64,000 nt of DNA, from positions 102,917-166,916 of the forward strand of contig JANQFH010000024.1 of the NCBI GenBank assembly GCA_028277945.1. The letters are read 5' to 3'. The DNA is from Oligoflexia bacterium. GTDB taxonomy: Bacteria > Bdellovibrionota_G > JANQFH01. The notes below the pieces were generated by a model that made no database searches, was not told the origin of the DNA, and worked only from the letters and a program-made list of their open reading frames with translations. A program made the position numbers and the translations under genes. Shown here piece by piece: positions 23,902 through 63,780 of this stretch (position 1 is its first letter; each line of letters starts with the position of its first letter).

Positions 23902-25203
23902 ATGCGGATTTTATCCATGCGACCGAGCCTTGTTTATATATTGGGCACTGCCGGGGATGCTTTTTCGCAAGCGCTGTATACGGTGGGAAAAGCCGTGTTT
24001 CTGTGGCACTTTCTTGGCGATGATAATCTGCTCTCTGCGGGATTGATTGCCACGGCTTTCAGCTTTTTCTTCTTTTTTGAGGCTATCATGGAGGTGGTTT
24101 CTAGCTTTGCCGCGGATAGATGGGGTCTATCTAGAAGAAAGGTATTTTTAACGGGTATTCTGCTGCCGACAATCTGTTTTGTCGTGCTCTCGCTACATCC
24201 CTTTTGGATTGCAGATACCACGCTGGCCATGCTCGCTTTTGCTATCAGCCAGTTTCTGTTTGCAACCAGCATTACTTTGATATCCGGTACCTTTGATGGC
24301 TGGTCAATTACCGCCGAACTGTCGCAGGACTCTAGCTTTTCCAAGGCAAAGTTTTTTAGTTTGGCGACGATAGCCAAACGTTTAGCCTATTCTTTGGGAT
24401 GCTTGCTCATTGTCATAGTGTTATTCGTCATGGAAGCGAGTGAAAATCCTAACGTGAAAGGCATCTGGTGGACGCGCATATGGATATTTGCTGTGATATT
24501 TCAGATGATGCTGTTTGTGCTTTTGTATCATTTCTCCAGGGGACATGATTCCGTGCAAAAGGCAGGTCCACTGCCTGCATGGGCCCCTATGTTGCACGCT
24601 ACCTATCAACCATCAGCCCTACCCGGGCTTGTTTTGTACTGTAGCATGTATCTGCTAGGTATGGTGGTCACGGTTTCCTGGCCGACGCTGGTTGATGTTG
24701 TTGGGCCACGGCCGCTGCCCTACTTAATAGCGCCCGCGTTAACGCTGGTTGGTTTTTTTGGTGCTATGTGGGCGAAGCGTGTCACCAAACGATCGAGTGA
24801 TCAGGCCGCAGAACAACATGCGCTCAAAGGCGCACTGCACACCTGCTATCTTCTTATTGGTGCAGGGCTCTGTCTCTCTTTCTCTCAAGAGCGCGGCATG
24901 CTCCCATTGATTGCCGTGGCGTTTGTTATCCTCATGCGCCTACCTTTTTACTTTGGTTTTCCATTTGTCCTAAGCCTCATGCATGAGAATATTGGTGGCA
25001 GCGAGAATGTCCGTGCTTGCGTGGTGTCACTGCGTACAGCCACAGCGAGTCTGTTTGTTGGTGTCGCCTTTATCATACAACGTCTTCTATTCGACGCTCT
25101 CGCGCTAGCACCTTACAAGATGTTCGCCTGGACGCTGATTTGTGGTTCCCTGCTCGCCCTCGTGGCACTGCTAGCATTAAAGCTTCGCCAAAAAGATTTA
25201 TAA
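23902..25203 (+). CDS. Polytopic membrane protein, probably an MFS-type transporter
   Basis: 433 aa with about 12 hydrophobic helices and an MFS-like loop FAADRWGLSRRKV after TM2. Confidence 0.5.
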   Translation: MRILSMRPSLVYILGTAGDAFSQALYTVGKAVFLWHFLGDDNLLSAGLIATAFSFFFFFEAIMEVVSSFAADRWGLSRRKVFLTGILLPTICFVVLSLHPFWIADTTLAMLAFAISQFLFATSITLISGTFDGWSITAELSQDSSFSKAKFFSLATIAKRLAYSLGCLLIVIVLFVMEASENPNVKGIWWTRIWIFAVIFQMMLFVLLYHFSRGHDSVQKAGPLPAWAPMLHATYQPSALPGLVLYCSMYLLGMVVTVSWPTLVDVVGPRPLPYLIAPALTLVGFFGAMWAKRVTKRSSDQAAEQHALKGALHTCYLLIGAGLCLSFSQERGMLPLIAVAFVILMRLPFYFGFPFVLSLMHENIGGSENVRACVVSLRTATASLFVGVAFIIQRLLFDALALAPYKMFAWTLICGSLLALVALLALKLRQKDL

Positions 25204-40964: not shown

Positions 40965-41852
40965 TCAGTAACCAAAGGCTTTCACGGTCTTGAGCTCTTG
41001 ACGCCAATTCTTATGGACTTTGACAAAAAGTTCAACATGGACTTTCTTGCCATGGTTCGCCTCAAGCTCCTCTCTTGCTGCCATGCCAATCCGCTTTATG
41101 GTGGCACCTCGCTTGCCAATGAGGATTTTCTTGAGGGCTTGGCGATCGACAACGATCACCGCCTGAACGAGGAGCTGCTGCGTACTCTCTTTATACGCTT
41201 CGACGATGACCGCACAAGCGTAGGGGACTTCCTGACCGGTGAACTTGAAGATCTTTTCGCGAATGATCTCTGCCGCGAGGAAGCGCTCTGTTTGATCAGT
41301 AAGCGTCTCATTGGGGTAGTAGAGTGGGCCATCCGGCAGATGTTTACGGATGGTGGCGAGCAGTTGGGAGAGCCCCTCGCCACTCTTTGCCGAGACCGGT
41401 AACAGGGTTGCAACACCGCTGTTGTTGCCGATCTCTTGCAACGTTCTCTCCTGTTCAGCTTTGTCGGCAAGCCGGTCTACTTTGTTGAGCACGGCAATCC
41501 GCTTGACACCGCTCTCTTTGCTCTGTTTTGTCACCAGCGCGTCTTCCTCACCCCACTCCCGTGTCGCATCGAACAGCAAAAGGGCAAGATCAGCCTCCTT
41601 GAGCGCTTCTAAGGCGTTGGCTTGAATACGCTGATCTAAGCTGAGCTCCGTTGGCCGACAGTTGAGACCAGGGGTATCCAAAAAGACCATCTGCGCCTGC
41701 TCGTCCGTATGAACACCGAGGATGCGATGCCGCGTTGTCTGTGGTTTGGCGGAGACAATGCCCACCTTATGACCGAGGACACGGTTGAGCAGTGTTGTCT
41801 TACCGGTGTTGGGCCGACCGCAGATGGCTATAAACCCACTCTTAAATGCCAT
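40965..41852 (-). CDS. era: GTPase Era
   Basis: GRPNTGKTTLLN, DTPG, NKVD and a KH domain (VIVVDRQALKKILIGKRGATIKRI). ATG 41852 is preferred; the tracked ORF runs to 41882. Confidence 0.9.
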   Translation of the reverse strand: MAFKSGFIAICGRPNTGKTTLLNRVLGHKVGIVSAKPQTTRHRILGVHTDEQAQMVFLDTPGLNCRPTELSLDQRIQANALEALKEADLALLLFDATREWGEEDALVTKQSKESGVKRIAVLNKVDRLADKAEQERTLQEIGNNSGVATLLPVSAKSGEGLSQLLATIRKHLPDGPLYYPNETLTDQTERFLAAEIIREKIFKFTGQEVPYACAVIVEAYKESTQQLLVQAVIVVDRQALKKILIGKRGATIKRIGMAAREELEANHGKKVHVELFVKVHKNWRQELKTVKAFGY

Positions 41853-41902
41853 CTTGCAGCTATAGCGATTTGCCTGGAGCATAGCAACTAGTTGCTATGG
41901 GC

Positions 41903-49378: not shown

Positions 49379-50311
49379 TTGAAGAATATGGTGGAGGCAA
49401 TGGATTTACTCTGGCAGGAGCCGCAACAGGTGCTGTCGCTACGTTGTCCGGCAAAGGTCAATCTCTTTTTGCGTATTCTTGGCCGCAGGCAGGATGGTTA
49501 TCACAACCTAGTAAGCCTTATGGCCAAGGTGACACTCTTTGATGAACTGATCCTACGGCGCTTGCGTCGCTCGACCATTAAACTCATCTGTCCACAAAAC
49601 CGCCAACTCGAAAGCGACGATAACCTTGTCATGCGTGTTGCCAGAGAGCTGCTACCAGCAGACATTGGGGTTGAGATGGAGTTGCACAAATCGATTCCCA
49701 TAGGTGCTGGGTTAGGGGGTGGTAGTAGTAATGCCGCCGCTGCTCTGCTTGGCCTCAACCAGCTATTCGAGCTAAAGCAAGACACTCAGCGGCAACACCA
49801 GCTCGCCGCTCGTCTCGGCGCCGACGTACCATTCTTTCTTCTCAAACAGAGTGCTGCCATGGCCACCGGCATAGGCACAACCTTAAGACCTCTCTCTCGC
49901 CTACCCAAACTTGCGCTGTTGTTGGTCTATCCTCGGGTGGCGGTTTCATCGGCAGCGGCCTACCGAGCCTTTGCCCATGCCACCGAAGCCGGCTCTGAGC
50001 AAATTTCTTTGACATTAAGTTCTAGTAATGATAAGAGAAATTGCGGTATGGGGGCTGCGTCCGCGGCGCATTGCGTAGCACGTATGCTGCACAATGATTT
50101 AGAAACGGTCGTAGCGCAGCAACTTCCCCAGATCCAAGAGCTTAAACAGCGGTTGTTGGCAGCCTCTGCACTGGCAGCAACCATGAGCGGTAGTGGCTCT
50201 ACCGTCTTTGGGCTCTATGCGGGTGAAGAGGAAGCAAGACGTGACGAGAAGCAGTTACAGCAGGAGCATCACCTGTGGGTGAAGCAGGTAGCGACACTGT
50301 CTGCAGATTGA
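49379..50311 (+). CDS. ispE: 4-diphosphocytidyl-2-C-methyl-D-erythritol kinase
   Basis: CPAKVNLFLRILGRRQDGYH and the GHMP motif IPIGAGLGGGSSNAAA. Start is 49379 (TTG) or 49388 (ATG). Confidence 0.88.
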   Translation: MKNMVEAMDLLWQEPQQVLSLRCPAKVNLFLRILGRRQDGYHNLVSLMAKVTLFDELILRRLRRSTIKLICPQNRQLESDDNLVMRVARELLPADIGVEMELHKSIPIGAGLGGGSSNAAAALLGLNQLFELKQDTQRQHQLAARLGADVPFFLLKQSAAMATGIGTTLRPLSRLPKLALLLVYPRVAVSSAAAYRAFAHATEAGSEQISLTLSSSNDKRNCGMGAASAAHCVARMLHNDLETVVAQQLPQIQELKQRLLAASALAATMSGSGSTVFGLYAGEEEARRDEKQLQQEHHLWVKQVATLSAD

Positions 50312-50336: not shown

Positions 50337-50666
50337 ATGGAGATAACTAGCATCAAGGTTTTTCCGGTTGATGAAGAGCGGTTGAAGGCGTTTGCAACGA
50401 TTGTTTTCGATAGTTGCTTCGTGGTTCGCGATCTCAAGATTATCAAAGGCAATAAGGGCCTGTTTGTGGCCATGCCAAGCAAGCGGTGCAAGGATGGCAC
50501 CTTTAAAGATATGGCCCATCCGCTCAATAGCGAGACGCGCAATCTGATCGAGGAGCTTGTCATCAAAGAGTACAATGAAGAGTTGAAGAGAAACGGCACA
50601 ACCCCAAAAGCTGGCTCTGCGGACGACTCTCCCGAGGATTCTTCCCTTGATGTTATCTCTCCCTGA
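50337..50666 (+). CDS. spoVG: Septation/regulatory protein SpoVG
   Basis: MEITSIKVFPVDEERLKAFATIVFDSCFVVRDLKIIKGNKGLFVAMPSKR...AHPLNSETR is near-consensus SpoVG. Confidence 0.9.
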   Translation: MEITSIKVFPVDEERLKAFATIVFDSCFVVRDLKIIKGNKGLFVAMPSKRCKDGTFKDMAHPLNSETRNLIEELVIKEYNEELKRNGTTPKAGSADDSPEDSSLDVISP

Positions 50667-50699: not shown

Positions 50700-50771
50700 T
50701 GGGGCGTCGTCAAGTGGTAAGACACAGGATTTTGGTTCCTGCATTCGGAGGTTCGAATCCTCCCGCCCCAG
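50700..50771 (+). tRNA. tRNA-Gln (anticodon UUG), CCA not encoded
   Basis: The cloverleaf was folded by hand. The acceptor TGGGGCG pairs with CGCCCCA. The D stem is GTC/GAC. The anticodon stem is CAGGA/TCCTG with loop TTTTGGT. The T arm is GGAGG-TTCGAAT-CCTCC and the discriminator is G. It is close to E. coli tRNA-Gln as I remember it. Confidence 0.9.
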
Positions 50772-50795
50772 CTTTACGTCTAAAGTAGGTTAAAG

Positions 50796-51779
50796 ATGAA
50801 ACACAACGATAAGATCTCTCCCAGCGCCTCAGAAACGGCCAGGGACATTAAGGTCTTTAGCGGCAACGCCAACAAAGAGCTGACCAAGCATATCTGTGAC
50901 TTTCTCAACATTGTTCCTGGCGAAGCTGAAGTGAGCCGCTTTAGTGATGGTGAGACCCGGGTAGAAATTAACGAGAACGTCCGCGGTCACGATATCTTTA
51001 TCGTCCAATCCACTTGCGATCCCGTCAACGACCATCTCATGGAGCTGTTGGTGATGATCGACGCCTTAAAACGCGCCTCTGCCCATCGCATCACTGCGGT
51101 GATACCCTACTACGGTTATGCCCGTCAGGACCGCAAGGTAGCTCCGCGTGCACCTATTACCGCCAAGCTGGTGGCTGACCTGTTGGCTGCTGCTGGCACC
51201 GATCGCGTTCTCAGTATGGATTTGCACGCCGGCCAGATTCAGGGCTTTTTTGATATTCCCTTTGACCACCTCTATGCCGCTCCGGTTTTGCTCGACTATT
51301 TAAAAAAGCTCCGCGGAGACCGCGAGGTCGTGGTGGTGGCGCCAGATGCAGGCGGTACAGAGCGCGCTCGTTACTACGGTAAGCGTCTCGATGCGAGTCT
51401 CGCGGTTATTGATAAACGGCGTGAACGCGCCAATGTCTCGGCAGTGATGCACATCATTGGTGATGTCAAAGATCGGGTTGCTATTCTTGTCGATGACATC
51501 ATCGATACCGCCGGTTCTATCACCCAGGCTGTACCCGCACTGCTCGATGCCGGCGCCATGGAGGTTTATGCCGTAGCCACCCACGCCGTGCTCTCAGGTC
51601 CTGCCTTGGAACGGATTGCCGCCTCGAAGATGTTAAAGTTGGCAGTAACAGACACCATCCCGCTGAGCGAGGAGTGCCGTAAGGTCGACAAGGTTGAGGT
51701 CTTCTCCGTGGCCCAGCTCTTGGGCGAGGCCATCAAGCGCATCCACAACGCTGACTCGGTCAGCTCGCTGTTTATTTAA
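50796..51779 (+). CDS. prs: Ribose-phosphate pyrophosphokinase
   Basis: [16 protein letters not shown], the PRPP loop [10 protein letters not shown], and a typical SVSSLF C-terminus. Confidence 0.95.
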
Positions 51780-51788
51780 AGACCCCTT
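51737..51788 (+). repeat. Direct repeat DR1a: last 43 nt of prs (stop codon included) plus 9 nt
   Basis: It matches 52518..52569 at 50 of 52 positions. Both differences are silent in the Prs frame (GCT/GCC and TAA/TGA). Confidence 0.9.
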
Positions 51789-51836
51789 TGGCCCCAAAGG
51801 TAATAAATTGTTAGGGGGCCTTCTTAGTCTTCATGA

Positions 51837-52115
51837 CTAGGCCACCAGTTTTTTCCTAAGCTTTTCAAGCTCATGCTCTAGACGATCTAGTCGAGATTCC
51901 TGCTGCTTTCTGTGGTGGAGCGTGTCGCGTAGGAGCCTATTTAATAGTGTCTGATAAGGGATTCCAGTGTTGTCGGACATCTTTTTTACTTCTGCCAACA
52001 AATCAGCATCAAAGTTTATGGTAATTTTCACCTTGTGCACTTTTGCCATCTGCTGACGTATTTGACGCGTTCCTTTTTTATCAATCTTTAGCTCACTCAA
52101 CTTTGGTTGCTTCAT
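51837..52115 (-). CDS. brnA: BrnA-type antitoxin
   Basis: The ATG at 52115 gives MKQPKLSELK. VKITINFDADLLAEVKKMSDNTGIPYQTLLNRLLRD is typical of the BrnA antitoxin family. The tracked ORF starts at TTG 52154. The gene overlaps the brnT stop. Confidence 0.75.
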   Translation of the reverse strand: MKQPKLSELKIDKKGTRQIRQQMAKVHKVKITINFDADLLAEVKKMSDNTGIPYQTLLNRLLRDTLHHRKQQESRLDRLEHELEKLRKKLVA

Positions 52116-52383
52116 GGTACAGTCTCCTAAAGTTACGCCATTCGGCTGATCCAATAATACGGATCTTATTTCCTCGCCTTGTGAAACGAGTTGTGAGAAT
52201 GCGATTTGATCTTGATTTGCCTACCCAGTAAAACCGCTTCTCATTCTGAGAATGCTGTTTATCCACCATCTGCACACCTTTAGGATCAAAAAAGGTTTCA
52301 ACTGCTTCGGCAAAACGGATGCCATGTTTTTGTATATTAAGACGCTCCTTGTCGATATCCCATTCAAATTCCACCTCAATCAC
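52093..52383 (-). CDS. brnT: BrnT-type toxin (DUF497 ribonuclease family)
   Basis: FEWDIDKERLNIQKHGIRFAEAVETFFDP is the BrnT/DUF497 N-terminal signature. GTG start. A TGgTAATAT extended -10-like box lies upstream on the minus strand. Confidence 0.8.
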   Translation of the reverse strand: MIEVEFEWDIDKERLNIQKHGIRFAEAVETFFDPKGVQMVDKQHSQNEKRFYWVGKSRSNRILTTRFTRRGNKIRIIGSAEWRNFRRLYHEATKVE

Positions 52384-52517
52384 TTACCGTATATATATGT
52401 ATATTACCATATTTTCACTCATGAGCGGGTCGTTGCTGAGCCAGACAAATAAGTTCTTTATTGTCAAATAGTTATTATTTCTGGTTACTAGAATAGCGGC
52501 GCAACTCAGCATGATTG

Positions 52518-52569
52518 GCGCATCCACAACGCCGACTCGGTCAGCTCGCTGTTTATTTGAAGACCCCTT
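52518..52569 (+). repeat. Direct repeat DR1b: orphan copy of the prs 3' end
   Basis: See DR1a. Homology to prs starts abruptly at GCGCATCC, and no prs-like sequence lies upstream of it. Confidence 0.9.
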
Positions 52570-52741
52570 CCTTCTCACGGGAGCCTGAGTCGCAAATAGG
52601 AAAAATTTTACGCAGTTTTATTTATGCCTCATCTGAATAAGTGTTTGAAAATTAACAGCTTTTCTCCTGGCACTTTTCTTGCTTTAAAACTTGCTATAGA
52701 AATGGAGAATGAATCATTCAGGCATTCATAGGAGTATGAAA

Positions 52742-53161
52742 ATGAAACGAATATCACTCATGTTTATCCTGGGAGCCGTGTTGGTACCCGTTTCGGGCTA
52801 CTCTGAACTCAGCATGGTTGAATGTGTCGCCCTTAAACAGATTATTGAAGAGTATGCGGTGACAAAGCCATTAAAAGAGATGTCCGGGAATGGTTCAGGG
52901 AATATTGGCCTGTCCGACAAAGCGACCCCAGAAGAGATTGCGGAGGCAGAACGACAGGCAGAGAAGATACAAGCAGCGTATGAAAAAAGAAAGCTTGAGG
53001 TAGAAGCTGACAATAAAGAAGCCCAAGCATTCAATGAGGAGATGAAAAGAAAACGGCAAGCAGTTGAAAAAGTGTATTCCGACAACGCGTGTGAAGAACA
53101 CTTCGAAGATCTTCTTAGTACGTTGGGTGTAAAGCTAGGTGACGAGCAAGAAGGCGACTAG
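52742..53161 (+). CDS. Small secreted Lys/Glu-rich coiled-coil protein
   Basis: The ATG at 52742 lies 7 nt after AGGAG. Signal peptide MKRISLMFILGAVLVPVSGYS, then a charged helical region (EEIAEAERQAEKIQAAYEKRKLEVEADNKEAQAFNEEMKRKRQAVEK). No family recognised. Confidence 0.5.
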   Translation: MKRISLMFILGAVLVPVSGYSELSMVECVALKQIIEEYAVTKPLKEMSGNGSGNIGLSDKATPEEIAEAERQAEKIQAAYEKRKLEVEADNKEAQAFNEEMKRKRQAVEKVYSDNACEEHFEDLLSTLGVKLGDEQEGD

Positions 53162-53194
53162 AAGGCCAAATCTGATATTGCCTCGGTTTCTTAT

Positions 53195-54496
53195 CTAAGA
53201 GCTATCCTCTGTGGATCTTTCTTTCTGCCTTTGAATATAGGTGTGGGTATTGGAGAGGGCTTGAATCATATCCTTATCTGTCTCAGCCAAAAGAGCTGTT
53301 GCTACTTTCTCTAATGCCTCATCTGCACGGTTGATGTTGACCGCCACCAGTGCCTCTGCCTTGGCAGCAAGCGCCAGAGCATAACTATCGTCGATCGTGC
53401 GCCATAACTCTTCCTCGGCACGCTGCTCGTAAAAGGCAAATTTTCTCTCAAGGCTCTTGGCTTTAAGACCTAGTGCAGCTTGACGCCGCACCTCTCCATC
53501 CGCATCATCTAACCGCGCGATAAACAGGATAACTACCTCATCGTTCTTTTTCCAATCGAGGAATCCGAGCGCAGCCGTTGCCCGCTGCCGTGATCGTTGA
53601 TCATCGTTGTCGCCCGTTGCTTGTGCCAGCAATGAAAACGCCAGATCGAGTAAGGCTCTGTTGAATTCTAAATAGTATAATATGGTTTCCATGTCCTTAA
53701 CCATGAACTCCTTATCGGTAGTCAGGTAGTTTTCAACCAAATCCTCAAGCAGCACTGAGTAGGCGTCATCACCTTCTTCGTCGGACATGGGTTTATATTC
53801 CAACAAGTAGCCAAAGGCCACGGGAAGGGCCTCTCGCTGCCAAACCACATCTTCATCATTCCCTTTGAACTGCAGGTAATGGTCTGAGTAGAGTGCCTCG
53901 ACGGTTAGAGGTCTACTATAGAGGTGCTCACGCAGCTCAGACCCCACTAAAAATTTGTTTCTTTCTGCAAAACCTAACTCTGCCAACCAGACCCAAGTTC
54001 GATCTCCATGGCCAAGTTTAGCCAGTGTATGCAACGCCTGCGCTATAGCGTCCCTTAAGGTGAAATTTTTCTCTTCTTTTGCTTGGCGCGCATCTTCTTC
54101 TATCGCTACATCCAACAACTCATCGAAAGCAGCACCATACTCCATGGCAACTAAGGTCTCGACTGCCTGCTGTCGCAATTGTGCCGCCTGCCATGAGGAT
54201 TCCTCACCTTCTTCGGCACTCTTAACGATTTCTAGAACCGCCTCTCCCGCCTTTTCAGCAGCCTCTTTGCCTCTGTCAGCTAACATACAGAGAGCAGTGC
54301 TGCGCGTTTCGTAGCTCCATTCACTACTCAGTCGCTCTACCAAGGTGTCGATGTCGTCTATCAAGCCTGCAGGGTTGGCAATGCCTTGCGGGCAATGTGC
54401 CCGTGCGACTGCCTGGTTCGTTAACGTTGAGCTCATGACAAAGATACAGGCCAAAACAGTCGAGAGTCCGATCTTACTTTGGCTAGGTAAAGACAT
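53195..54496 (-). CDS. Secreted HEAT-repeat protein
   Basis: The ATG at 54496 lies 6 nt after GGAGG. Signal peptide MSLPSQSKIGLSTVLACIFVMSSTLTNQAVARA. It has HEAT-like units (TRSTALCMLADRGKEA; LDDADGEVRRQAALGLKAKS). It is divergent from the 2411-aa gene. Confidence 0.6.
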   Translation of the reverse strand: MSLPSQSKIGLSTVLACIFVMSSTLTNQAVARAHCPQGIANPAGLIDDIDTLVERLSSEWSYETRSTALCMLADRGKEAAEKAGEAVLEIVKSAEEGEESSWQAAQLRQQAVETLVAMEYGAAFDELLDVAIEEDARQAKEEKNFTLRDAIAQALHTLAKLGHGDRTWVWLAELGFAERNKFLVGSELREHLYSRPLTVEALYSDHYLQFKGNDEDVVWQREALPVAFGYLLEYKPMSDEEGDDAYSVLLEDLVENYLTTDKEFMVKDMETILYYLEFNRALLDLAFSLLAQATGDNDDQRSRQRATAALGFLDWKKNDEVVILFIARLDDADGEVRRQAALGLKAKSLERKFAFYEQRAEEELWRTIDDSYALALAAKAEALVAVNINRADEALEKVATALLAETDKDMIQALSNTHTYIQRQKERSTEDSS

Positions 54497-54745
54497 GACG
54501 ACCTCCAGCGGCAAGTAAGCCCTGATTAAAAATTCCTTGAGATTTCCCTAACCTAGATATCGCATCGTGTCAACAAGACATTTCTTTGTAACATCTCTCT
54601 TACCACGGGCTTGCCACGGGCGGCTGGGTCGCAAATAGGGAGAAGACTAAGAGAACAGCTCCTGCTGGCCCAAGGTAGATGGTCACCGGCCAGCCCTAAC
54701 TTATTTTTTCTTTTTTTCCAACAACTTAGTCTTTCCCATCCCCTC

Positions 54746-54774
54746 TTGACACCCCCTAACGCATCGCATACAAG
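54746..54774 (+). promoter_or_regulatory. Candidate promoter for the 2411-aa gene
   Basis: TTGACA (54746-54751), a 17-nt spacer, then TACAAG (54769-54774). The -10 is weak. Motif-only call. Confidence 0.25.
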
Positions 54775-54795
54775 ATTTAGTTATCAGGATATAGT

Positions 54796-57700
54796 ATGGC
54801 CGAGTTTCAGCGTAAGATTTTCACATCTTCAGTATTTTTCAGGTCTTTTGGTTTGCTGTGTTGGTTTGTATTGCTCTTTGCCAGCCCAGCTTTAGCCCAT
54901 TCTTCAGCAGCTGAGCTGTATGCCAACTACCGTTCTATATACGGCAGCTATAGTTGGTGGTTAGAGCGTTGGCTGGATTGGCATGAGCAGCGGCGTAGGT
55001 ACTTTGCCGAGATTGAGAGTCCTCAAGGAGACTTCACCGCCTTTGCCGAGACCTCAGCGTTTGCCGATTTATCAGATTTAGAGCAGCGGTTCTATTATGA
55101 GAACTCGCTTAGGCAGTTCACGGTTTTAAAGGCCGATGATCTAGTCATTGTAGCTCAAGCAGAGCCCAATGCCCTGGTACGTGCACAGTTATTAGAGGCT
55201 GCCTTAGGCAACTACCTGCTCGTGCAAGACCGTTGGCGTATTGAGGCCACAGACAGAGCGTTACTTACGACCTATGCTGAAGCTGGGGATGTTTTTTGGC
55301 AGCATTACTATGAAGCGCGGCGGATGATGCTGGGTTTGGATGCCACTGCTACTTGGCAGCAGATGCTCGTTGCTTTTGATCGTTTGGCCACAGAGACCCT
55401 CGGCCTATCTGAGTACGAACGCATCTACCAGGGCTCTCAGCACTTTTTAGCTTACATAGAAGAGGAGGAGCCTCGTTCCATAGCCCGCAATCTTGCCAAG
55501 AACGGTTTGGCCCTGACCCTGTTGGAATCGAGCGATGTCAACAGTACCTGGAAGAACTCCGCTTATGAGACCTCAAAGTTAATCAAGCAACTCGGTTTGC
55601 TCTCTGTGTTGCTGGAGTGGGTCCATAACCAAGAAGCTAGTACGCTTGAGGAGGCGCTGCCTCTCCTGACAAAGCATGCTCCTAAGAGCGGCGTCCTACC
55701 CAAGCAAGAGGGTGAGCCTGGGGTGCACTATGTGGATGTGACCCAGAAGGTCTATTTGGGGTTGGGTCAAGAGAACGATCGTTGGATCCTACGTGGGGGT
55801 GAGATCTATTTACTCCCAAGCATCCAAGATAAGCAGATCACCATTGAGGTCACTGAGATTGGTGGGATGGTGGGCATGGTTCGTGACACTCCTACTGTCC
55901 AGGTAGATGACACCCAGAGAGGTACGGGACGTCTGTGGGCTTTAGATGAGGCTAAGCTGTATGCCAAGGTAAAGCTGCGCTCATCCATGCATTTTGCAGG
56001 GGATCAAGTAGGTACGATAACCGTTCAGCATGGCAGGATCATCGCCTCGGAGTATGAAGAGAACAAAGATCTCCATGGCAAGCTCTACCTAGCCTTGCAG
56101 CCGAGCAAACTACGGCGTCAATGGATCAGCTCACTATACCGGGATCTTCCCAAGCAATGGCAACAACAGGGACGTACAGATGTCGCCCTATTAGATGATC
56201 TTCTAGCACTCGAGCGTCTCTCTAAGCACAACTGGCGTTCTCGGCATGATCGTTATCTTGCCATGGCCAAGCGTTACCGCAGAGAGCACAGCCACAACAC
56301 CGCGACCCACATTGCAGAGGATAACCTGTTGTTGACCCTACACTCCCGTGAAGCTGAGGAGATGGCCGCACAGATCAATGGTTTTTTTGGCGATCGTCAT
56401 AGGGATCAACTAGCCGCTTTTACGATCTACGATCTGCCCATTTTAGTCCCCGCCTTAGCATTGATGGTTCCAAGTGGGGGTGCCAGCCTTGGTGGCGTAG
56501 CCGCGGCCACGGGGCGTAGTGTAATGTGGCGCACTCTGTTTGCTCAAGGAGCCAAGCGTTGGTTGATCCGAGGTCTTATTGGTAGCTCTATCCTCACTCC
56601 CTTACACGCGGGTTGGAAGCATCTAACTGGCCGTCCAGCCTTGGATCACATCTGGTTAGACTTTGCCGTCAATGCCACCTTTATTGCTTCGTTTGGCGGT
56701 ATTCGTGTGCTGCATCAGCTGGGAGACCGGTTGATGTTGAAGGCGCTGCCTTTTTTAAGAAAGCCAGGGGGTTATCTCGTACCACGGATGACCTTCCGCG
56801 GCACCATGGAAGCGGCTCCAGCCTTAAGCCATACAGGTACGGCGTTGAGTCAAACGGCTTTGGTTTTAGAGATGGGTATGGCTCTCACCGCAGCCTCTGG
56901 GGGTTGGAGTAATCTGCTTAGTCTCGGTGCCCAAGGTCCCAAAAGCCTGAGTGATTGGCGCGATCTGTATTTTCGTACGACGTTGATGGTGGGTATGCTG
57001 CATACCTCCTTAGTGGCTATGCGACCTGGTCTTTTACGCCAACCCATCATCGGTCAACAGATCGCTGGCCAACGCTTTGGCTTGCAACAGATCGGTCAGC
57101 AGCTGCAACCCTCGACTCGTCCAGGTTCTTCCCAGCCTGCAAACTATGCCAGACAGGCTGAAGCAGTTGCTCTGGAGATCATGGAGAGCTGGCGCCAAGG
57201 AGGCTCTGGACCTCGGCAGCCTAGCTCAAGTTGGGGAGAGGCTGGCAACTACAACAATTTTGTAGAAAGCCTGCCTGGATCCTCAACAACAGGACCGAGA
57301 GCGGCTACACCCGTAAACAGTAGACAAGTGGCGACAAGAACAACAACACCCACCTCAAGTAGAACCCAGAGCCCACAGAATAACCGGCAAACTACTCCTG
57401 AAAATACCCCCACAACAACCATGCCAGATATGCCAGCTGTGGTACCCATTACCGTACTACCCGCTATGCCAGAGATGTTCCCTGCTGAACCGGATGCAAC
57501 AACGACAATGCCTGATGAAGCTCAATCAAAAGCAGTCTTGCACAAGGCAAATTTTCAGGCTAGCAATGCCCCTCCATCCCTTCCTCCCGGCAATGACCTT
57601 TTAGATTGGTTTGCCTACGTAAAACTCTGTGCTGAATCTAGCGAATTTTGTGGTCGTTTTTCGTTTAAAGACTTTCAAACACAACGTAATGAACTGTTGA

Positions 57701-60700
57701 CAGCGTGGGGGCATCTTCTTGGGGACGAAACATTTGATCCTAAGCGCGAATTTCAGACCCTGTTAAGGCAACTCATAGTCGCACTTGAGACTGCAACAGG
57801 GTTGGAAAGATTCAAATCCTTCCGCGCTAATGAATTTGAATCGGTGGGAAGAGAAATTGAAGCACTAGGTGGGAAGATGGCCTACTATACGCTAAACATG
57901 GTGGGTGGAAGGCGTGTCATGCTAAGGCTCATTCCAGAGAGTCTCATGGATGCGGACAGGCAAGGGATCAACGTTGGCATTGTAGAGACTCAGTTTCTGG
58001 CTCAATATGATTTGGCACCAGAGATTTTAGGGGTCGTCCCAGCAGATGAACTTAAAGAACTACTGAAACTGCCAGGAATTAGTGACAACCCTCACGACCC
58101 GTTTGTTCTTGGTGTGGTGTTTGAAGATTTCAGTGATGCCTATTGGCCAGGACACGAGGAAATGCCTACAGGTGAAGAGCGCTCGTGGGACCCAATGGCT
58201 GTACGTCACCGTATGTTGGCTTTGGAATACTTTCTAGATCAATTGCATATAAACTATTCAAGCCAAATTGAGCTTCTCATCATGCCCGATGGACGAGTAT
58301 GGGTGTTCCCAAGTGACCTGCCACACTTTGCTGGGGTTGATGCAGACGTAAGGAATAATTTTGTTAGTCATCTCTGGAATCGAGTAGAGTGGGCTGACAT
58401 AGACCCTGACCGGTTTGGAGATTCTGTAGTATCGCTGCGACCCTTTCTTGAAGCCATGGGCCTACAGCCACCAAGTGGAAGGTCTCTTTCTGCGGAAGAC
58501 ATCGACGCTGAGCTCCGTGGTGAGGGCGGTATCAATGACCCGGATGAGACGGAACGACGCCTCATTGAGGGATGGCAAAGAATGATTGAACATGATGATT
58601 CTAATGGCGGTCCAAGAGGACCGCAGGCACTCTTGGACGATGGGACCTCTGGGGAGAGTTTTGGGCCACCCCTGCCTTTGGACTACGGCCCACCCCTCGA
58701 TCCAGAACTTACAGAGATGCCGTTGCTGCCGCATATTGTTCTTCCGAAGACCTCACCTTATATCGGTGATTCCCCTGGTTCCGCCACTTCCTTTGTGGCA
58801 TCCGAACAGGACAATCCATTGAGAGAGGATCGTGAAGAACAGTTTCGACATGCAGACCAAAAGCTACGATTGATTTTTGGTAATGCTGCCAATTGGGCAT
58901 TTCATAATAGTCCACCTAGCCTTGAGCACTATTTCCAAACGGAGCATGGATCACCAGAGCAAACTACACAAGAACGACAACTATTGGTGTTGCGCGCAAT
59001 GCTTGATGGCGTCTTTTTTGCTGGATTAAATAGATTGCTCGAACTCCAAAAGCTCTTTTTGTTTTCGGATGAAACGTTGCAACAGTTTAGAAGGTTCAAA
59101 GAACGTGTTCTTGCTAACCCTCCATCCAAGGGTAGAGACATAGCTGCTATTCTAGGTGAAATAGAAAAGGAGGCTAGTGATCTTATTGGCAGTCGGATCG
59201 ATGACGTTATGATTAGTGTTTTTCGCGATCCAGAGTTGGCTCCTCAGAGTGTACGGGATGCCCTTGCCCAGGCAGGTGTTGACTACCAGGACACTGTGCG
59301 TTGGAGTCCGGAAGTGCTTGCCCCAGATAAGTTTCAACAGCTGTTGTTTGAAGTTATGAAGGTTCTTGGGTGGGACGGCACTATTGAAGTCGGTATTACG
59401 TTTGGGCTTCCCGATCCTAGACATCCAGATCGACTATATCAGCTTCACGCTACAATACCTGAATGGGCTGGTTATATGGCACTGGTTCATGAGATAGGCC
59501 ACTGGTACCAAAGCTTTAGTCTTTTGCGGGCTGGGAGGCCAAGGCCTACTACACCTACCGTCACTATAGAAGGTGCCGATCTTTTCGAAACGCTTAGAGA
59601 ACTTGAAGTTTATCTTGAGATGCTAAGACCTACTGACCCAGAACATAGGACAACGGAGGAATTGCTTGACAGAGTTCACCATCTATCTCAACTTTTCGAT
59701 TATTATCTTCCACTGCTTCGCACCCTAGCTGCAAGGTCTGATCTAGTGACCGAGGTTGAAACTGCGTTACGTGTTGGAGAAGGTGAACACAGTGAAAATC
59801 CAGATTACGAAAGGTTTGTTGCATTCTGGCTTTCATTGGTTGATCCTGAATTTATACAGGAGGTTGTTGAAACACTTGATCGTCTTGAGGAACGTGCGGA
59901 AATTGTTCTCGAATTTTATTCGAGTTTAGACCTCTCCGTACGTCTTCAAAGTAGACCATCGTTGATTTTAGAAGAAGAAACCATGTCTGAGAGCGGAGGC
60001 GAAACTGTTGCGTCCTCGCCTCCTAGTCGCGGGTCTTCTCGAAGTACCTCTGTGGCGCCTGCCCGCCCTACTAGCATTGCCCAAAACGAACCTTGTCCTT
60101 GTGGCAGCGGTAAAAAATTCAAGAAATGTCATGGCGCGCCGGGTGGACCGAACGCACTCTTGGACGATGGGATCTCTGGGGAGAGTTTTGGGCCGCCCCT
60201 GCCTTTGGACTACGGCCCACCAGTCGATCTAGAACTTACAGAGATGCCGTTGCTGCCGCATTGGCATGCGGGGCAAGGCGCTGCAGGGTTTCCACTGGGG
60301 GACAGTGATGCAGATCCGCCATTCCTAACTCCTCGTTGGATCGAACAGACCACCCCGCCATGGGTGGTGGGTGACGAAGCTGATGTCGATGCTGCTGACG
60401 GTGACAACACAGACGAAACAGCAGCGCAACCACTCCTGACGCCGCTCGCTCCATCTCTATTGCCAAATGACGGGCTGTCCAATTTGCAGCTGCAAGCTTC
60501 TTCTGAGGAAAGAGATGCGGAAGACCAATCGACACCCGATGAACCCGAGGAAGCAACAACTCCAGCAGCAGAAGAAGCTCAACCAAGTGACGCTGGGCAC
60601 GAAGATGTCGTTGTAGATTTGTTAGGAGAGGAAGCCGCTACAATTTGGCATGCGCACTGGCCGTTAGAAGCTGACGCCACTGATTTAGCAGAGCAATTGT

Positions 60701-62031
60701 ACAGAGCCCTGGTTGCTGAAGCAGACATCCTAGGTAGAATGTTCGATGCGAAACTCAAAGCGGTTGGCTCTAATAGAGAGGAGGCGATTAGATGGGCGGA
60801 TCGAGATGCCGAGGGTGGAGAAGCAGAGGAAGACATCCCTGAAGATGTTTATCAGAGATACAAAAGAGCTGAAGCATTAGCGAGGGCAGATGCCGATTTT
60901 CAGCGGCAGATGCAAACCATTGAATTACTGAAGACCCTTTTAAAAGGAGCCGTAGATCGCTTAGCCAGTTGGGGCATCCATACATTGATCCATCGTCTTG
61001 GTCTTAGACCAGAACTATCCTTGGGAGAAGCGATGGGTGGTATGCCGACATGGGATGCTAACGAAGTATTTGCAGAAGCTGTGGGTAGTCTCCTACTTAG
61101 TCGAGGCATTGATTTTTTTGGTCCGGAATCCCCAATTACTGATGTGATGCTTGTTCAAGAGAGACTAAGGTGGGATTTAGCCTTGATAGCATTTACAGCA
61201 GGAGTTGATCCGGCAGTACTGACGACAGATTCTCATTATGAACTAGTACAGGACGACCTAAATGCTTTGCTACAGACGCTCGCAGTAGTTTGTCGTCGGA
61301 TTGAGGTGTTAGAGGTACAACGCGCCCTGGGACTTCGCACCATTAGCAAAGCAATAGCAGCTCTCGAAGCATTGCAAGGGGAAACAGGGCAGCGTGAATT
61401 TGAAGTTGAGGGTTTAACGGCTAACGAGAGGGATTTTTTTAATCTTGTTATATTGAATGCGCTTCCCGACGAGTTTGATGTTGCTAGTGCGATATCCGTA
61501 TTAGCAGACCTTCGTGCAGAGCAAAATCGAGCCGTTGATACAAAACAAGCGCTAGACAGATCTTTAAAGCCGTTATTGGATCTGCTTGAGCGATTTGATC
61601 AATTTCTGGGTGAACAGAGTGATGTAGAGCACAGCCTTGCGGATGCTTTTAGAGGTCAAGATGTGTCTGAACATCGGTTGAGAGAAAGAGTACAAATTTT
61701 CTTTGGTGGAAATAGAGAACTATCCGAAGCCGTCTACAAAGCTTTCCTTGGTGAACAGCATCTTGAGGGAGAAGCCAAAGTCGAATTTTGGCGTCGAGTT
61801 GCGGAGATTGCCGCTACAGCGTCTAATTTACTTTGGTCTATTGTGCACCGCCATCGAGCTCTGCCAACAGTAGAAACAATGGGCGATGGCATGGCACTAC
61901 GCTTTCAACCGGCTAGCCCTGAACTTGACCCAGCAGCAAGAGCAGAACAAATTGAGCGAGCCCTTGCTCGCGTGGCTGTAGAGTTCCGGTCCCGTCTTGA
62001 AGCGAGAGAGCGTGAACAAGGTGGTGAATAA
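54796..62031 (+). CDS. Giant multi-module protein (2411 aa): signal peptide, ~500-aa exported region, ~5 TM helices, S/T/P linker, three large modules separated by a duplicated 36-aa motif; HEIGH and SEC-C motifs
   Basis: The reading frame is uninterrupted for 7.2 kb, with AGGA 8 nt before the ATG. The N-terminus FVLLFASPALA|HS looks like a signal peptide. Hydrophobic helices lie around aa 540-745. HEIGH is at aa 1565-1569 and CPCGSGKKFKKCHG at aa 1767-1780. Confidence 0.8.
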   Translation: MAEFQRKIFTSSVFFRSFGLLCWFVLLFASPALAHSSAAELYANYRSIYGSYSWWLERWLDWHEQRRRYFAEIESPQGDFTAFAETSAFADLSDLEQRFYYENSLRQFTVLKADDLVIVAQAEPNALVRAQLLEAALGNYLLVQDRWRIEATDRALLTTYAEAGDVFWQHYYEARRMMLGLDATATWQQMLVAFDRLATETLGLSEYERIYQGSQHFLAYIEEEEPRSIARNLAKNGLALTLLESSDVNSTWKNSAYETSKLIKQLGLLSVLLEWVHNQEASTLEEALPLLTKHAPKSGVLPKQEGEPGVHYVDVTQKVYLGLGQENDRWILRGGEIYLLPSIQDKQITIEVTEIGGMVGMVRDTPTVQVDDTQRGTGRLWALDEAKLYAKVKLRSSMHFAGDQVGTITVQHGRIIASEYEENKDLHGKLYLALQPSKLRRQWISSLYRDLPKQWQQQGRTDVALLDDLLALERLSKHNWRSRHDRYLAMAKRYRREHSHNTATHIAEDNLLLTLHSREAEEMAAQINGFFGDRHRDQLAAFTIYDLPILVPALALMVPSGGASLGGVAAATGRSVMWRTLFAQGAKRWLIRGLIGSSILTPLHAGWKHLTGRPALDHIWLDFAVNATFIASFGGIRVLHQLGDRLMLKALPFLRKPGGYLVPRMTFRGTMEAAPALSHTGTALSQTALVLEMGMALTAASGGWSNLLSLGAQGPKSLSDWRDLYFRTTLMVGMLHTSLVAMRPGLLRQPIIGQQIAGQRFGLQQIGQQLQPSTRPGSSQPANYARQAEAVALEIMESWRQGGSGPRQPSSSWGEAGNYNNFVESLPGSSTTGPRAATPVNSRQVATRTTTPTSSRTQSPQNNRQTTPENTPTTTMPDMPAVVPITVLPAMPEMFPAEPDATTTMPDEAQSKAVLHKANFQASNAPPSLPPGNDLLDWFAYVKLCAESSEFCGRFSFKDFQTQRNELLTAWGHLLGDETFDPKREFQTLLRQLIVALETATGLERFKSFRANEFESVGREIEALGGKMAYYTLNMVGGRRVMLRLIPESLMDADRQGINVGIVETQFLAQYDLAPEILGVVPADELKELLKLPGISDNPHDPFVLGVVFEDFSDAYWPGHEEMPTGEERSWDPMAVRHRMLALEYFLDQLHINYSSQIELLIMPDGRVWVFPSDLPHFAGVDADVRNNFVSHLWNRVEWADIDPDRFGDSVVSLRPFLEAMGLQPPSGRSLSAEDIDAELRGEGGINDPDETERRLIEGWQRMIEHDDSNGGPRGPQALLDDGTSGESFGPPLPLDYGPPLDPELTEMPLLPHIVLPKTSPYIGDSPGSATSFVASEQDNPLREDREEQFRHADQKLRLIFGNAANWAFHNSPPSLEHYFQTEHGSPEQTTQERQLLVLRAMLDGVFFAGLNRLLELQKLFLFSDETLQQFRRFKERVLANPPSKGRDIAAILGEIEKEASDLIGSRIDDVMISVFRDPELAPQSVRDALAQAGVDYQDTVRWSPEVLAPDKFQQLLFEVMKVLGWDGTIEVGITFGLPDPRHPDRLYQLHATIPEWAGYMALVHEIGHWYQSFSLLRAGRPRPTTPTVTIEGADLFETLRELEVYLEMLRPTDPEHRTTEELLDRVHHLSQLFDYYLPLLRTLAARSDLVTEVETALRVGEGEHSENPDYERFVAFWLSLVDPEFIQEVVETLDRLEERAEIVLEFYSSLDLSVRLQSRPSLILEEETMSESGGETVASSPPSRGSSRSTSVAPARPTSIAQNEPCPCGSGKKFKKCHGAPGGPNALLDDGISGESFGPPLPLDYGPPVDLELTEMPLLPHWHAGQGAAGFPLGDSDADPPFLTPRWIEQTTPPWVVGDEADVDAADGDNTDETAAQPLLTPLAPSLLPNDGLSNLQLQASSEERDAEDQSTPDEPEEATTPAAEEAQPSDAGHEDVVVDLLGEEAATIWHAHWPLEADATDLAEQLYRALVAEADILGRMFDAKLKAVGSNREEAIRWADRDAEGGEAEEDIPEDVYQRYKRAEALARADADFQRQMQTIELLKTLLKGAVDRLASWGIHTLIHRLGLRPELSLGEAMGGMPTWDANEVFAEAVGSLLLSRGIDFFGPESPITDVMLVQERLRWDLALIAFTAGVDPAVLTTDSHYELVQDDLNALLQTLAVVCRRIEVLEVQRALGLRTISKAIAALEALQGETGQREFEVEGLTANERDFFNLVILNALPDEFDVASAISVLADLRAEQNRAVDTKQALDRSLKPLLDLLERFDQFLGEQSDVEHSLADAFRGQDVSEHRLRERVQIFFGGNRELSEAVYKAFLGEQHLEGEAKVEFWRRVAEIAATASNLLWSIVHRHRALPTVETMGDGMALRFQPASPELDPAARAEQIERALARVAVEFRSRLEAREREQGGE
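58627..58734 (+). repeat. Intragenic repeat R1 (36 codons: ALLDDGTSGESFGPPLPLDYGPPLDPELTEMPLLPH)
   Basis: It matches 60154..60261 at 103 of 108 nt by hand alignment, in the same reading frame. Confidence 0.9.
60154..60261 (+). repeat. Intragenic repeat R2 (ALLDDGISGESFGPPLPLDYGPPVDLELTEMPLLPH)
   Basis: See R1. It starts 6 codons after the SEC-C motif. Confidence 0.9.
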
Positions 62032-62045
62032 ACTAGGCTAAAGGC

Positions 62046-62075
62046 TTGACTTAGAGCGGCTGGTGCAGGTATATA
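62046..62075 (+). promoter_or_regulatory. Candidate promoter for rplY
   Basis: TTGACT (62046-62051), an 18-nt spacer, then TATATA (62070-62075). A GGCAAC...GTTGCC hairpin lies in the leader. Motif-only call. Confidence 0.3.
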
Positions 62076-62137
62076 GCCCCGGGTTCAAGGCAACATCGCT
62101 GATTCGTTGCCAAAATAGCGACCCCAGAATAGAGACC

Positions 62138-62851
62138 ATGGAGAAGATAACACTACAGGCGGAGCTGCGGCAGAGCCGTGGTACCAACGCCAACCGTCGA
62201 CTGCGGCTGCGGGGACTCGTGCCAGCAGTGGTCTATGGCCGCGGCAGTGATCCGGTCAGCCTACAGTTCAATCCCAAGAGCTTGCTACAGGCCCTGCAGG
62301 GGGGAGAGAGTGCCACGCGGCTGATCAGCCTCGATATTAGCGGTACTAAGAAAGACAGCTCGCGCCTGGTGTTGCTCAAAGAGGTGCAGCGCGATCCGCT
62401 AACGCAGGCTTGGAGCCATGTCGACTTTCTCGAAGTCAACATGAAAGAGGCCATTACCGTACCCGTGCCGCTGCGCTACGTCGGTAAAGCCGCCGGTCTT
62501 GTACAGGGCGGGATTGTCGATATCCAACGACGTCAACTAAACATCAGCTGCCTACCGGCAGATATCCCGACCCACATTGACGTGGATGTAACGCAGCTCA
62601 ACATTGGCGATTCCCTACATATTAGTGATATTCAAGTGGCTGCAGGCTTGACCATTGTCGATAGTGCTCATCTTACCTTGGCCACGGTGGTGGTGCCTGG
62701 TAAGGAAGAAGAGCCCGCAGCCGTCAGCGAGGAAGAGGCGGCCGCGGCGGAAGCGGCAGCCGCTGAAGGCGAACAACCTGCTGCTGCAAAGCCTGAAGCA
62801 GAAGCTGACGCTAAAGAAAAAGACAAAGAGAAAGAAAAAGAGAAAACATAG
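62138..62851 (+). CDS. rplY: 50S ribosomal protein L25 / general stress protein Ctc (long form)
   Basis: The ATG at 62138 gives MEKITLQAELRQSRGTNANRRLRLRGLVPAVVYG, the L25/Ctc signature. An acidic Ala/Glu/Lys tail follows. The tracked ORF starts earlier, at 62063. Confidence 0.88.
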   Translation: MEKITLQAELRQSRGTNANRRLRLRGLVPAVVYGRGSDPVSLQFNPKSLLQALQGGESATRLISLDISGTKKDSSRLVLLKEVQRDPLTQAWSHVDFLEVNMKEAITVPVPLRYVGKAAGLVQGGIVDIQRRQLNISCLPADIPTHIDVDVTQLNIGDSLHISDIQVAAGLTIVDSAHLTLATVVVPGKEEEPAAVSEEEAAAAEAAAAEGEQPAAAKPEAEADAKEKDKEKEKEKT

Positions 62852-63120: not shown

Positions 63121-63780
63121 ATGAGTCTCAGTTTAGTAGTAGGCTTGGGCAATCCGGGCGGCGAGTACGCTGCAACAAGACACAACCTCGGCTTTCTTAT
63201 TGTCGACGCTTACCTGGCAAAGTGTGGTTTGAACTCACACAAGCACGGACTTTGGAAGCAGCTCCTGAGCAAAAAGCTGTGGCAGAAAAAATTTTCAGCA
63301 AAGTTTCTCGATCTTGAAAGGGTCGCTCCAGAAGTCCTAAAAAAAATAGGAATTCGCTATTGGTTAAAGCCCACAACCTTTATGAACCGCAGCGGCCAAT
63401 CTGTCGGTCCCTGCTTGCACACCCTGCAGTTAAAACCAGAGCAGATGTTGGTGGTGCACGACGATCTGGACATACCCCTGGGAAAAGTTAAGGTTAAGAG
63501 CTCCGGCGGTCATGGTGGCCATAACGGCATACGCTCCATCATCGACGCTGTGGCTGGCGACGGCTTCTGGCGTTTGCGTATTGGTATTGGTAAGCCAGCG
63601 GCAGATTTTGGTGGTGATGGTGCCGATTGGGTATTGCAGCCCAAAGATAGCGAAGAGCTGCAACCCTGTATTGCCGCGGGAACGCAAGCGCTCACAACAA
63701 TCGTGCAACACGGTTTAGAAAAGGCTATGCAGATCATACATACCAATACAGATAAGGAGAGAGATGATGTTGACGGATAA
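63121..63780 (+). CDS. pth: Peptidyl-tRNA hydrolase
   Basis: [30 protein letters not shown] and GGHGGHNG. It carries a ~25-aa Lys-rich insertion relative to E. coli Pth as I remember it. Confidence 0.92.

Follow-up and report, generated by a model that had tools for sequence, protein, structure and literature searches.

The DNA considered here is a 64,000-nt stretch (hereafter the window) of contig JANQFH010000024.1 from the Oligoflexia bacterium assembly GCA_028277945.1, and the element in question is the interval of about 10.3 kb that separates prs from rplY within a string of housekeeping genes. The interval holds brnA, brnT, a gene for a small protein of 139 or 150 aa, a gene for a 433-aa protein and a giant gene for a 2411-aa protein; the map of open reading frames (ORFs), the tRNA scan and the domain scans find these genes, together with ispE-spoVG-tRNA-Gln-prs on the left and rplY-pth on the right, at the places given to them by the initial annotation of the sequence. 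Each of the three large products begins with a Sec-type signal-peptide-like segment. The annotation's remark that genes for mobility are missing was borne out as well: Pfam, NCBIfam, PADLOC and PHROGs reveal no integrase, transposase, phage or conjugation domain in the interval, and a scan with Rfam returns nothing but the tRNA. The interval is probably a lineage-specific patchwork, put together by at least two independent insertion events where the stop codon of prs and the promoter of rplY were once only about 10 nt apart; its host is an uncultured bacterium with a Bdellovibrionales-like Prs. The coordinates of all features are collected in Table 1.

The accessory nature of the interval emerges from five loci of relatives (L014, L015/L016, L017, L103 and L104), whose gene identities were checked by tblastn. 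The nearest Prs homologues among 5.8 billion proteins are 66-75% identical (75%, 71% and 70% for the best three), and one of the top homologues is annotated as coming from a Bdellovibrionales metagenome-assembled genome. In four of these five relatives (L014, L017, L103 and L104), prs and rplY are adjacent, in the order tRNA-Gln-prs-rplY(-pth) and with a spacing of 5-140 nt between prs and rplY; on its left side, L017 also carries the same mreC-mreD-PBP2-rodA genes as the window. The interval is therefore accessory rather than part of an ancestral order, as the initial annotation had supposed. The fifth relative, L015/L016 (Prs 71% identical; L015 8450-12979), has prs separated from tRNA-Gln by an M19 dipeptidase gene and a 160-aa orphan, and 3' of prs it carries a 131-aa orphan and the gene of an HtrA-like protease in place of rplY; these extra and unrelated genes mark the neighbourhood as a recurrent spot of insertion or rearrangement. 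A tRNA-Gln gene stands upstream of prs in all five relatives, and it is thus a member of the ancestral string and not a landmark of the island; its candidacy as an integration landmark was rejected on account of this conservation and of the lack of a repeat. A scan of species-representative genomes with RplY reached only distant phyla, at no more than 42% identity.

The right edge of the insert can be placed within about 6 nt. In the closest relative, L014, the rplY promoter CTAAAGGCTTGACC...TATATA (motif CTAAAGGCTTGAC...TATATA) starts 8 nt after the prs stop codon; in the window, the same promoter motif starts 6 nt after the stop codon of the giant gene. As the promoter follows prs in one genome and the giant gene in the other, the whole 10.3 kb occupies what used to be a gap of about 10 nt.

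The composition of the interval points to an origin that is foreign or, at the least, atypical. The codon adaptation index (CAI) of the interval is 0.70-0.735, compared with 0.782 ± 0.031 for the 45 other genes of the window, and the G+C content at third codon positions (GC3) goes down to 0.34-0.45 as against 0.56 ± 0.05. Set against the rest of the window, the giant gene has a tetranucleotide correlation of 0.77 (0.90 ± 0.02 for 7.2-kb control chunks), and positions 51789-54795 have one of 0.65 (0.82 ± 0.05 for 3-kb control chunks). Within the giant gene, the first 600 codons are host-like in CAI and GC3 (0.55) and the remainder has a GC3 of 0.34-0.42, a break that characterizes it as a mosaic gene.

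An independent Logan assembly (SRR20820740, contig L102) is 100% identical to the window over 50743-54767 and so confirms the left junction, brnTA and the two smaller genes; it calls brnA as a 92-aa and the small protein as a 139-aa gene. The ends of L102/L105 fall inside tRNA-Gln (50743) and 29 nt short of where the giant gene begins (54767); this second break could reflect strain heterogeneity or simply coverage. When Prs, BrnT and the 433-aa protein were looked up by exact sequence, the one contig recovered was identical to the window, and no second strain appeared.

Table 1. Features of the prs-rplY interval and its flanks (positions in the window)
Feature	Positions	Strand	Evidence or remark
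ispE	49379-50311	+	left flank
spoVG	50337-50666	+	left flank
tRNA-Gln(ttg)	50700-50772	+	tRNA scan
prs, ribose-phosphate pyrophosphokinase	50796-51779	+	Pfam Pribosyltran_N, Pribosyl_synth, Pribosyltran; left flank
Direct repeat copy 1, attL-like: functional prs 3' end + 9 nt	51737-51788	+	repeat family D3
brnA antitoxin, 92 aa from ATG; ORF reaches 52154	51837-52115	-	Pfam BrnA_antitoxin
brnT ribonuclease toxin, 96 aa	52093-52383	-	Pfam BrnT_toxin
Direct repeat copy 2, attR-like: displaced prs 3' end, contiguous with 9.5-kb block	52518-52569	+	96% identical to copy 1
D4 copy a, left edge of 9.5-kb block	52571-52605	+	80% identical to copy b
Perfect sigma-54 -24/-12 consensus TGGCAC-N5-TTGC, upstream of small exported gene	52668-52682	+	consensus match only
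Small exported charged helical protein, 139 aa from ATG 52742; 150-aa ORF from 52709	52742-53161	+	hydrophobic N-terminal signal
433-aa exported all-helical protein (439-aa ORF)	53195-54496	-	signal-like N-terminus
D4 copy b, divergent promoter region between 433-aa and giant genes	54610-54644	+	repeat search
Giant 2411-aa mosaic membrane protein	54796-62031	+	sole Pfam match SEC-C
Hydrophobic/transmembrane cluster of giant, aa 539-747	56410-57036	+	Kyte-Doolittle peaks 1.88, 1.32, 1.15, 1.19
Internal 131-nt repeat copy 1, aa 1270-1313, ALLDDGxSGESFGPPLPLDYGPP..ELTEMPLLPH	58604-58734	+	91% identical to copy 2
Conserved module, aa 1340-1780: helical region, HEIGH (59488-59502), ELEV, SEC-C (60085-60135)	58813-60135	+	HMMER, alignment A3
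Internal 131-nt repeat copy 2, opens 630-aa C-terminal extension to 62031	60131-60261	+	starts exactly at homologues' stop
Ancestral rplY promoter region (CTAAAGGC-TTGACT-18 nt-TATATA), right edge of insert	62038-62075	+	conserved with L014
rplY/ctc (ribosomal protein L25), true start 62138	62138-62851	+	Pfam Ribosomal_L25p, TL5_C; right flank
pth	63121-63780	+	Pfam Pept_tRNA_hydro; 3' of rplY

At the left junction, the initial annotation had noted a duplication of the prs end. The duplication is real (52 nt, 96% identity, consensus GCGCATCCACAACGC[CT]GACTCGGTCAGCTCGCTGTTTATTT[AG]AAGACCCCTT), but it flanks brnTA alone and not the whole island: the two copies are spaced by 781 bp, and the 729 bp between them contain a promoter/palindrome, brnT, brnA and a hairpin and nothing else. 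Bracketed by its own repeats, brnTA is an independent insertion, and since copy 2 runs directly into the remainder of the block, the cassette is probably the later arrival. The two differences between the copies (GCT/GCC and TAA/TGA) are silent in the prs frame, which is expected if an incoming circular element bore its own version of the gene end and entered by a single crossover. No repeat links 52570 to 62037, leaving the 9.5-kb block without bounding repeats. The idea that the sequence before the giant gene preserves a third prs end in degenerate form, which would have implied serial insertions at one attachment (att) site, was considered and rejected; the MAFFT alignment is suggestive, and the local score equals the shuffle and genomic background (0.58-0.62 of which score as high).

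The genes of the cassette belong to the BrnT/BrnA type II toxin-antitoxin (TA) family, first described in Brucella abortus. BrnT scores 71.2 bits with PF04365 (cutoff 34.5) and matches PHROG 4399 (E=1.5e-10); BrnA scores 31.6 bits with PF14384 (cutoff 26.1), and 15.8 bits, far under the cutoff of 60, with the NCBIfam equivalog NF047399. With the family, the pair shares these Pfam domains above their cutoffs, the toxin-first order of overlapping genes (brnT lies upstream of brnA on the same strand, with an overlap of 23 nt) and an AT-rich palindrome of its own, GTATATATATGTATAT, located at about 52386-52405 immediately upstream of the brnT start codon, which is plausibly the autoregulatory operator of the operon. 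It differs in its setting, a 729-bp minicassette inside duplications of a housekeeping-gene end, which lies outside the definition of the family. A blastn search of the cassette against plasmids gave no match.

In terms of architecture, the closest parallel is with cis-mobilizable elements (CIMEs) and other decayed integrative elements that target the 3' ends of housekeeping genes, such as the ICESt1/ICESt3 family at fda in Streptococcus thermophilus. As in CIMEs, direct repeats hold the 3' end of the target, the element-proximal copy regenerates it, and no genes for recombination or transfer lie between the repeats; having att-like repeats and no recombinase, brnTA is thus probably a non-autonomous CIME-type element or the remnant of one. 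The cassette differs from CIMEs in its length of just 729 bp, in that neither a cognate integrase nor an autonomous partner was found (its mobility is predicted only), and in its target, prs not being known as one from the literature consulted; nor did literature searches yield anything specific to the island.

The largest part of the 9.5-kb block is taken up by the giant gene. Its product starts with a signal peptide (aa 1-34) and an N-domain up to aa 538, followed by a hydrophobic cluster (aa 539-747), a Pro/Thr-rich linker (about aa 780-900), an orphan segment (aa 900-1269), a 43-aa Pro-rich motif, a module with an HExxH sequence and a SEC-C motif; after SEC-C come a second Pro-rich motif, an acidic tract and a helical C-terminal part of 590 aa. 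This layout and the signal-like N-termini agree with the exported nature of the two smaller proteins and the membrane anchor of the giant claimed by the initial annotation. SEC-C (residues 1764-1780) reaches 34.9 bits in Pfam (cutoff 20.4), with C1767, C1769 and C1778 followed by His, and its motif CxCxSGxKxKxC[HC] matches the SecA tail and YchJ in the Protein Data Bank (PDB). Splitting the giant into five segments brought up no further family match. PDB sequence searches with its N-terminal and C-terminal parts had no match, no word-level homologue of the whole protein occurs among the 5.8 billion proteins, and an exact look-up found no record.

Relatives of the giant are few. An HMMER scan of residues 900-2099 against 1.84 billion representatives gave 435 matches, and among the best 150 of these 435 all but two cover the SEC-C motif alone. 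The two real relatives among the matches listed are P0123 (E=4e-23), a fragment of the 1109-aa protein P0273, and P0124 (881 aa, E=3.5e-8); homology is confined to residues 1340-1780 of the giant, with E values of about 1e-23 to 1e-30 for P0273 and about 1e-8 to 1e-16 for P0124. In the alignment of the three proteins (26-29% identity), H-E-x-G-H-x-x-Q, ELEV and the SEC-C cysteines are invariant and further helical positions are conserved; the HE[IL]GHxxQ helix is common to all three, and ELEV, 33-36 residues past the second His, is a candidate for the third zinc ligand. In all three the parts also come in one order (signal peptide, N-domain, hydrophobic cluster rich in Gly and Ala, low-complexity linker, module, SEC-C), and their N-terminal halves share no sequence similarity. 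A metagenome scan with the module alignment was dominated by SEC-C, with the HExxH part in none of 80 loci. Judged from these sequences, the giant appears to be a derived, expanded member of a very rare and clade-restricted family.

Two comparisons help to define this family. The module shares with the zincins (gluzincins, the small families Peptidase_M78 of ImmA/IrrE and PF04228, and possibly DUF4157-type HExxHxxQ domains) the HExxH helix and an acidic ELE about 33 residues downstream, and sub-threshold Pfam matches to Zn_peptidase and Peptidase_M78 fall on that helix; it differs from them in that no curated family reaches its threshold and no structural neighbour is found, catalysis being predicted only. 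The SEC-C motif matches the SecA type (SecA tail, YecA, YchJ) and is the extreme C-terminus of P0273 and P0124, as it is in SecA; here, however, the membrane protein has a signal peptide and the motif comes after an HExxH module that is unclassified, and in the giant it is internal.

This internal position indicates how the giant gene may have grown. The second copy of the internal 131-nt repeat begins precisely where the homologues stop, and the 630 residues after it have no relatives, a combination that is the signature of a recent duplication of a linker, with loss of the stop codon and fusion to what lay downstream. The two copies stand in the same reading frame and differ by three synonymous and eight non-synonymous codons; self-similarity between the modules of the giant protein beyond this repeat is not significant. 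For residues 900-1250, the idea of a degenerate protein-kinase-like domain was dropped for want of a Pfam match up to an E of 10 and of any HMMER match; a single-sequence AlphaFold model of this part, with a predicted local distance difference test score (pLDDT) of 39, is unusable.

The SEC-C motifs of SecA, YecA and YchJ are cytoplasmic, and the SEC-C of the giant likewise uses cysteines; the protein would thus be oriented N-out/C-in, with the module and SEC-C in the cytoplasm and the ectodomain, together with the two small exported proteins, in the periplasm. The likeliest mode of action, itself quite tentative, is one in which the zinc-binding HExxH module and SEC-C would act on the cytoplasmic side as a protease or as a tether to ribosome, Sec or membrane, and the ectodomain would face two co-regulated exported partners.

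The suggestion of co-regulation comes from a shared 35-nt element, D4, the alignment score of which stands out from all other windows (z=11.7). Its exact 12-nt core occurs twice in the 64 kb, both times in promoter regions of the block, and D4 is probably a regulator-binding site, to judge from its placement: copy a lies 63 nt upstream of a sigma-54-like promoter, and enhancer-binding sites typically occupy such a position relative to sigma-54 promoters. Two perfect matches to TGGCAC-N5-TTGC exist in the window, and the one at 52668 is the sole intergenic one. The other (41102-41116) lies inside a coding region (ORF 40965-41882, on the opposite strand) and is probably there by chance. The small exported gene has an AGGAG best placed before the ATG at 52742. 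Sigma-54 promoters for the 433-aa and giant genes were sought and rejected, as none occurs with up to 3 mismatches; both genes have TTGACA-type -35 boxes. D4 is not present at the loci of the giant's two homologues. Its sharing hints at co-regulation and is the only positive evidence for a functional link of the three genes.

This raises the question as to whether the interval encodes one coherent system of three envelope proteins, a trans-envelope machine or signalling device whose locus brnTA would stabilize, as the initial annotation had proposed. The signal-like N-termini on all three products, the D4 element common to two promoter regions and the compact, divergent arrangement of the genes are in favour of it, and the twice-repeated 43-aa Pro-rich motif could dock a helical-repeat partner. 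The 433-aa protein was taken by the annotation for an exported HEAT-repeat protein; the HEAT part is not borne out, with HEAT_2 at 21.8 bits (cutoff 27.7) and HEAT at 13.5 bits (cutoff 23.5), both sub-threshold, and the best match to a HEAT protein in the PDB has an E of 2.3. A PDB sequence search produced no relative, and a word search of the 5.8 billion proteins finds only the 433-aa protein itself, so that it stands without a detected homologue. The small protein has no family match above threshold in Pfam, NCBIfam, PADLOC or PHROGs, and a scan of viral contigs brought up nothing related.

The loci of the giant's homologues, which are unrelated to the prs-rplY site, speak against this system too, for no relative of the 433-aa or the 150-aa protein was found there, nor in 80 metagenome loci (tblastn and phmmer). 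P0124 is on a 2.92-Mb contig, with a normal prs-rplY-pth string about 200 kb away, and its neighbours are unrelated orphans with signal peptides and a transposase fragment. Around P0124 (L018 4462-20319), about 16 kb of genes have no Pfam matches, many of them with signal-peptide-like N-termini, and the fragment, of 119 aa, resembles the C-terminus of an IS30-type transposase; the stretch looks like an accessory region. Upstream of P0273 (L020 1194-8290), at a distance of 98 nt, is a 1222-aa gene whose matches to RHS_repeat are faint and to TEN_YD-shell weak and with which P0273 possibly forms an operon; downstream, P0273 is followed by a 75-aa gene and an AAA_14/DUF4143 gene. The annotation would have abandoned the idea of a system if the three large genes never co-occurred elsewhere; within very sparse sampling, they were found together nowhere else. 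Nor does the TA lock fit, since brnTA is bracketed separately by its own repeats. No secretion or defence model was matched, and the interval bears no defence, secretion, phage or recombinase signature: matches in PADLOC, a scan that the annotation had proposed, are limited to the 17-residue SEC-C motif, and those to E2, E1-E2 and PDC-S12 were rejected as a defence lead because they cover residues 1758-1781 only. A single three-gene system is thus unlikely. The interval is not a recognizable defence, secretion or toxin-delivery system, and the TA pair is a neighbour, not a component.

A second possibility is that the giant is an effector or polymorphic-toxin-like protein directed by a predator against prey or competitors, with HExxH as a toxic metallopeptidase and the 433-aa protein as immunity protein or chaperone. 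The affinity of Prs to Bdellovibrionales would suit it, as would the mosaic gene with its recently shuffled C-terminus, the RHS/YD-shell-like gene 98 nt upstream of P0273 and the cluster of signal-peptide orphans next to a transposase fragment in which P0124 resides. The RHS matches, however, are merely faint or weak, and the giant has none of the trafficking domains PAAR, VgrG, TPS, LXG or Rhs core. The conserved module is internal and not a variable C-terminal tip, the gene right downstream is rplY and not a small immunity gene, and the cysteine-based zinc site of SEC-C is typical of cytoplasmic proteins, all of which makes an effector quite doubtful.

Growth in situ, without any foreign insertion, would make the genes fast-evolving or de novo products whose composition reflects low expression. 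The host-like GC3 and CAI of the first 600 codons of the giant gene, the confinement of core-module homologues to related lineages, the further orphan ORFs elsewhere in the window and the different orphans around prs in L015 are compatible with it; but the tetranucleotide correlation is far under that of the size-matched controls, the brnTA cassette shows clear integration scars, and 9.5 kb cannot arise gradually in an ancestral gap of 10 nt, so that this origin is very improbable. That the giant gene and the right junction were mis-joined in a chimeric assembly is scarcely credible: although the Logan contig ends 29 nt short of the giant start and leaves the join without independent confirmation, short-read contigs often break for reasons of coverage, the 7.2-kb ORF is uninterrupted and has a proper signal peptide, D4 copy b connects the sequence ahead of it with the left side of the block, and the ancestral rplY promoter follows 6 nt past its stop codon. 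Each of the four alternatives was found to lack one of the features that would define it.

Two observations concern the flanks and the remainder of the window. The tail of RplY past TL5_C (62700-62851) is long and Ala/Glu-rich, then Lys/Glu-rich (KEKDKEKEKEKT), and a 31-nt piece of this tail shows a weak resemblance to part of the gene for the small exported protein (repeat family D2), probably as a compositional effect. Outside the island, the ORFs at 9720-12377 (885 aa) and 23902-25203 (433 aa), both on the + strand, have no Pfam match at E<=1e-5, and orphan proteins seem to be abundant in the genome generally.

Taken as a patchwork of insertions, the interval would have been built in at least two steps. 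In one, a foreign-looking block of 9.5 kb (about 52570-62037) would have entered the gap with its three Sec-signal orphans and two D4-bearing promoter regions; in another, probably later, the 729-bp brnT-brnA cassette would have integrated at the 3' end of prs through a crossover that was Campbell-type or site-specific, regenerating the end of prs and leaving 52-nt att-like repeats and no recombinase, as the repeat geometry suggests. The giant itself would have gained the orphan 370-aa segment and, by read-through fusion via the recently duplicated 131-nt linker at the ancestral stop, its 630 C-terminal residues.

Several points weigh against this reconstruction. The best relative is just 75% (Prs) and 51% (RplY) identical and the collections hold no closer one; with relatives so distant, the insertion can be dated only to after the split, and it is possibly old and fixed in the genus. 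Neither a recombinase nor an element with the prs 52-mer was found, and the att interpretation of the repeats derives solely from their geometry. The right junction and the giant gene lie outside the independent contig. For the HExxH module no curated family of peptidases reaches its cutoff: the best, Zn_peptidase PF04228 at E=0.0096, was seen with P0124 alone (15.9 bits, cutoff 23.2); the AlphaFold model of the module from the three-sequence alignment has a pLDDT of 57 and a predicted template modelling score of 0.52, best in the HExxH/ELEV helices, and Foldseek gives it no PDB neighbour. The topology comes from a hydropathy scan and not from a dedicated predictor, and D4 has just two copies and no known binding protein.

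As an accessory islet with a TA pair and orphan envelope proteins, the interval is of a well-known kind, and its particular content, including the unclassified module, is new. With genomic islets at core-gene hotspots it shares an atypical, lineage-specific insert, a spot that is variable in L015, and the combination of a TA pair with exported orphans; it differs from them in having no flanking tRNA scar, integrase or insertion sequence element, and in a content made up entirely of orphans. More speculatively, and improbable as it is at present, the three exported proteins may form an undescribed envelope device under sigma-54 enhancer-type control through D4, in which the giant's ectodomain meets the helical-repeat and coiled-coil partners in the periplasm, and the cytoplasmic zincin-like module and SecA-type zinc finger convert this contact into proteolysis or into tethering to ribosome or Sec. 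If this were true, HExxHxxQ...ELEV with SEC-C would define a new family and a new signalling logic.

The locus does not yet amount to a new biological system. What it offers is a base-level view of how a conserved tRNA-Gln-prs-rplY-pth string has been repeatedly invaded at one 10-nt gap with neither gene harmed, the end of prs being regenerated and the promoter of rplY retained. With 52-nt repeats around a recombinase-free TA minicassette, the 3' end of prs becomes a candidate target of integration for this clade, and the giant gene appears to have been caught growing by linker duplication and read-through fusion. The membrane-tethered module with HExxHxxQ...ELEV and SEC-C, present in three lineages among the matches listed from 1.8 billion representatives, deserves a family definition. 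The value of the interval thus lies mainly in genome dynamics and in the pointer that it gives for the sampling of this lineage.

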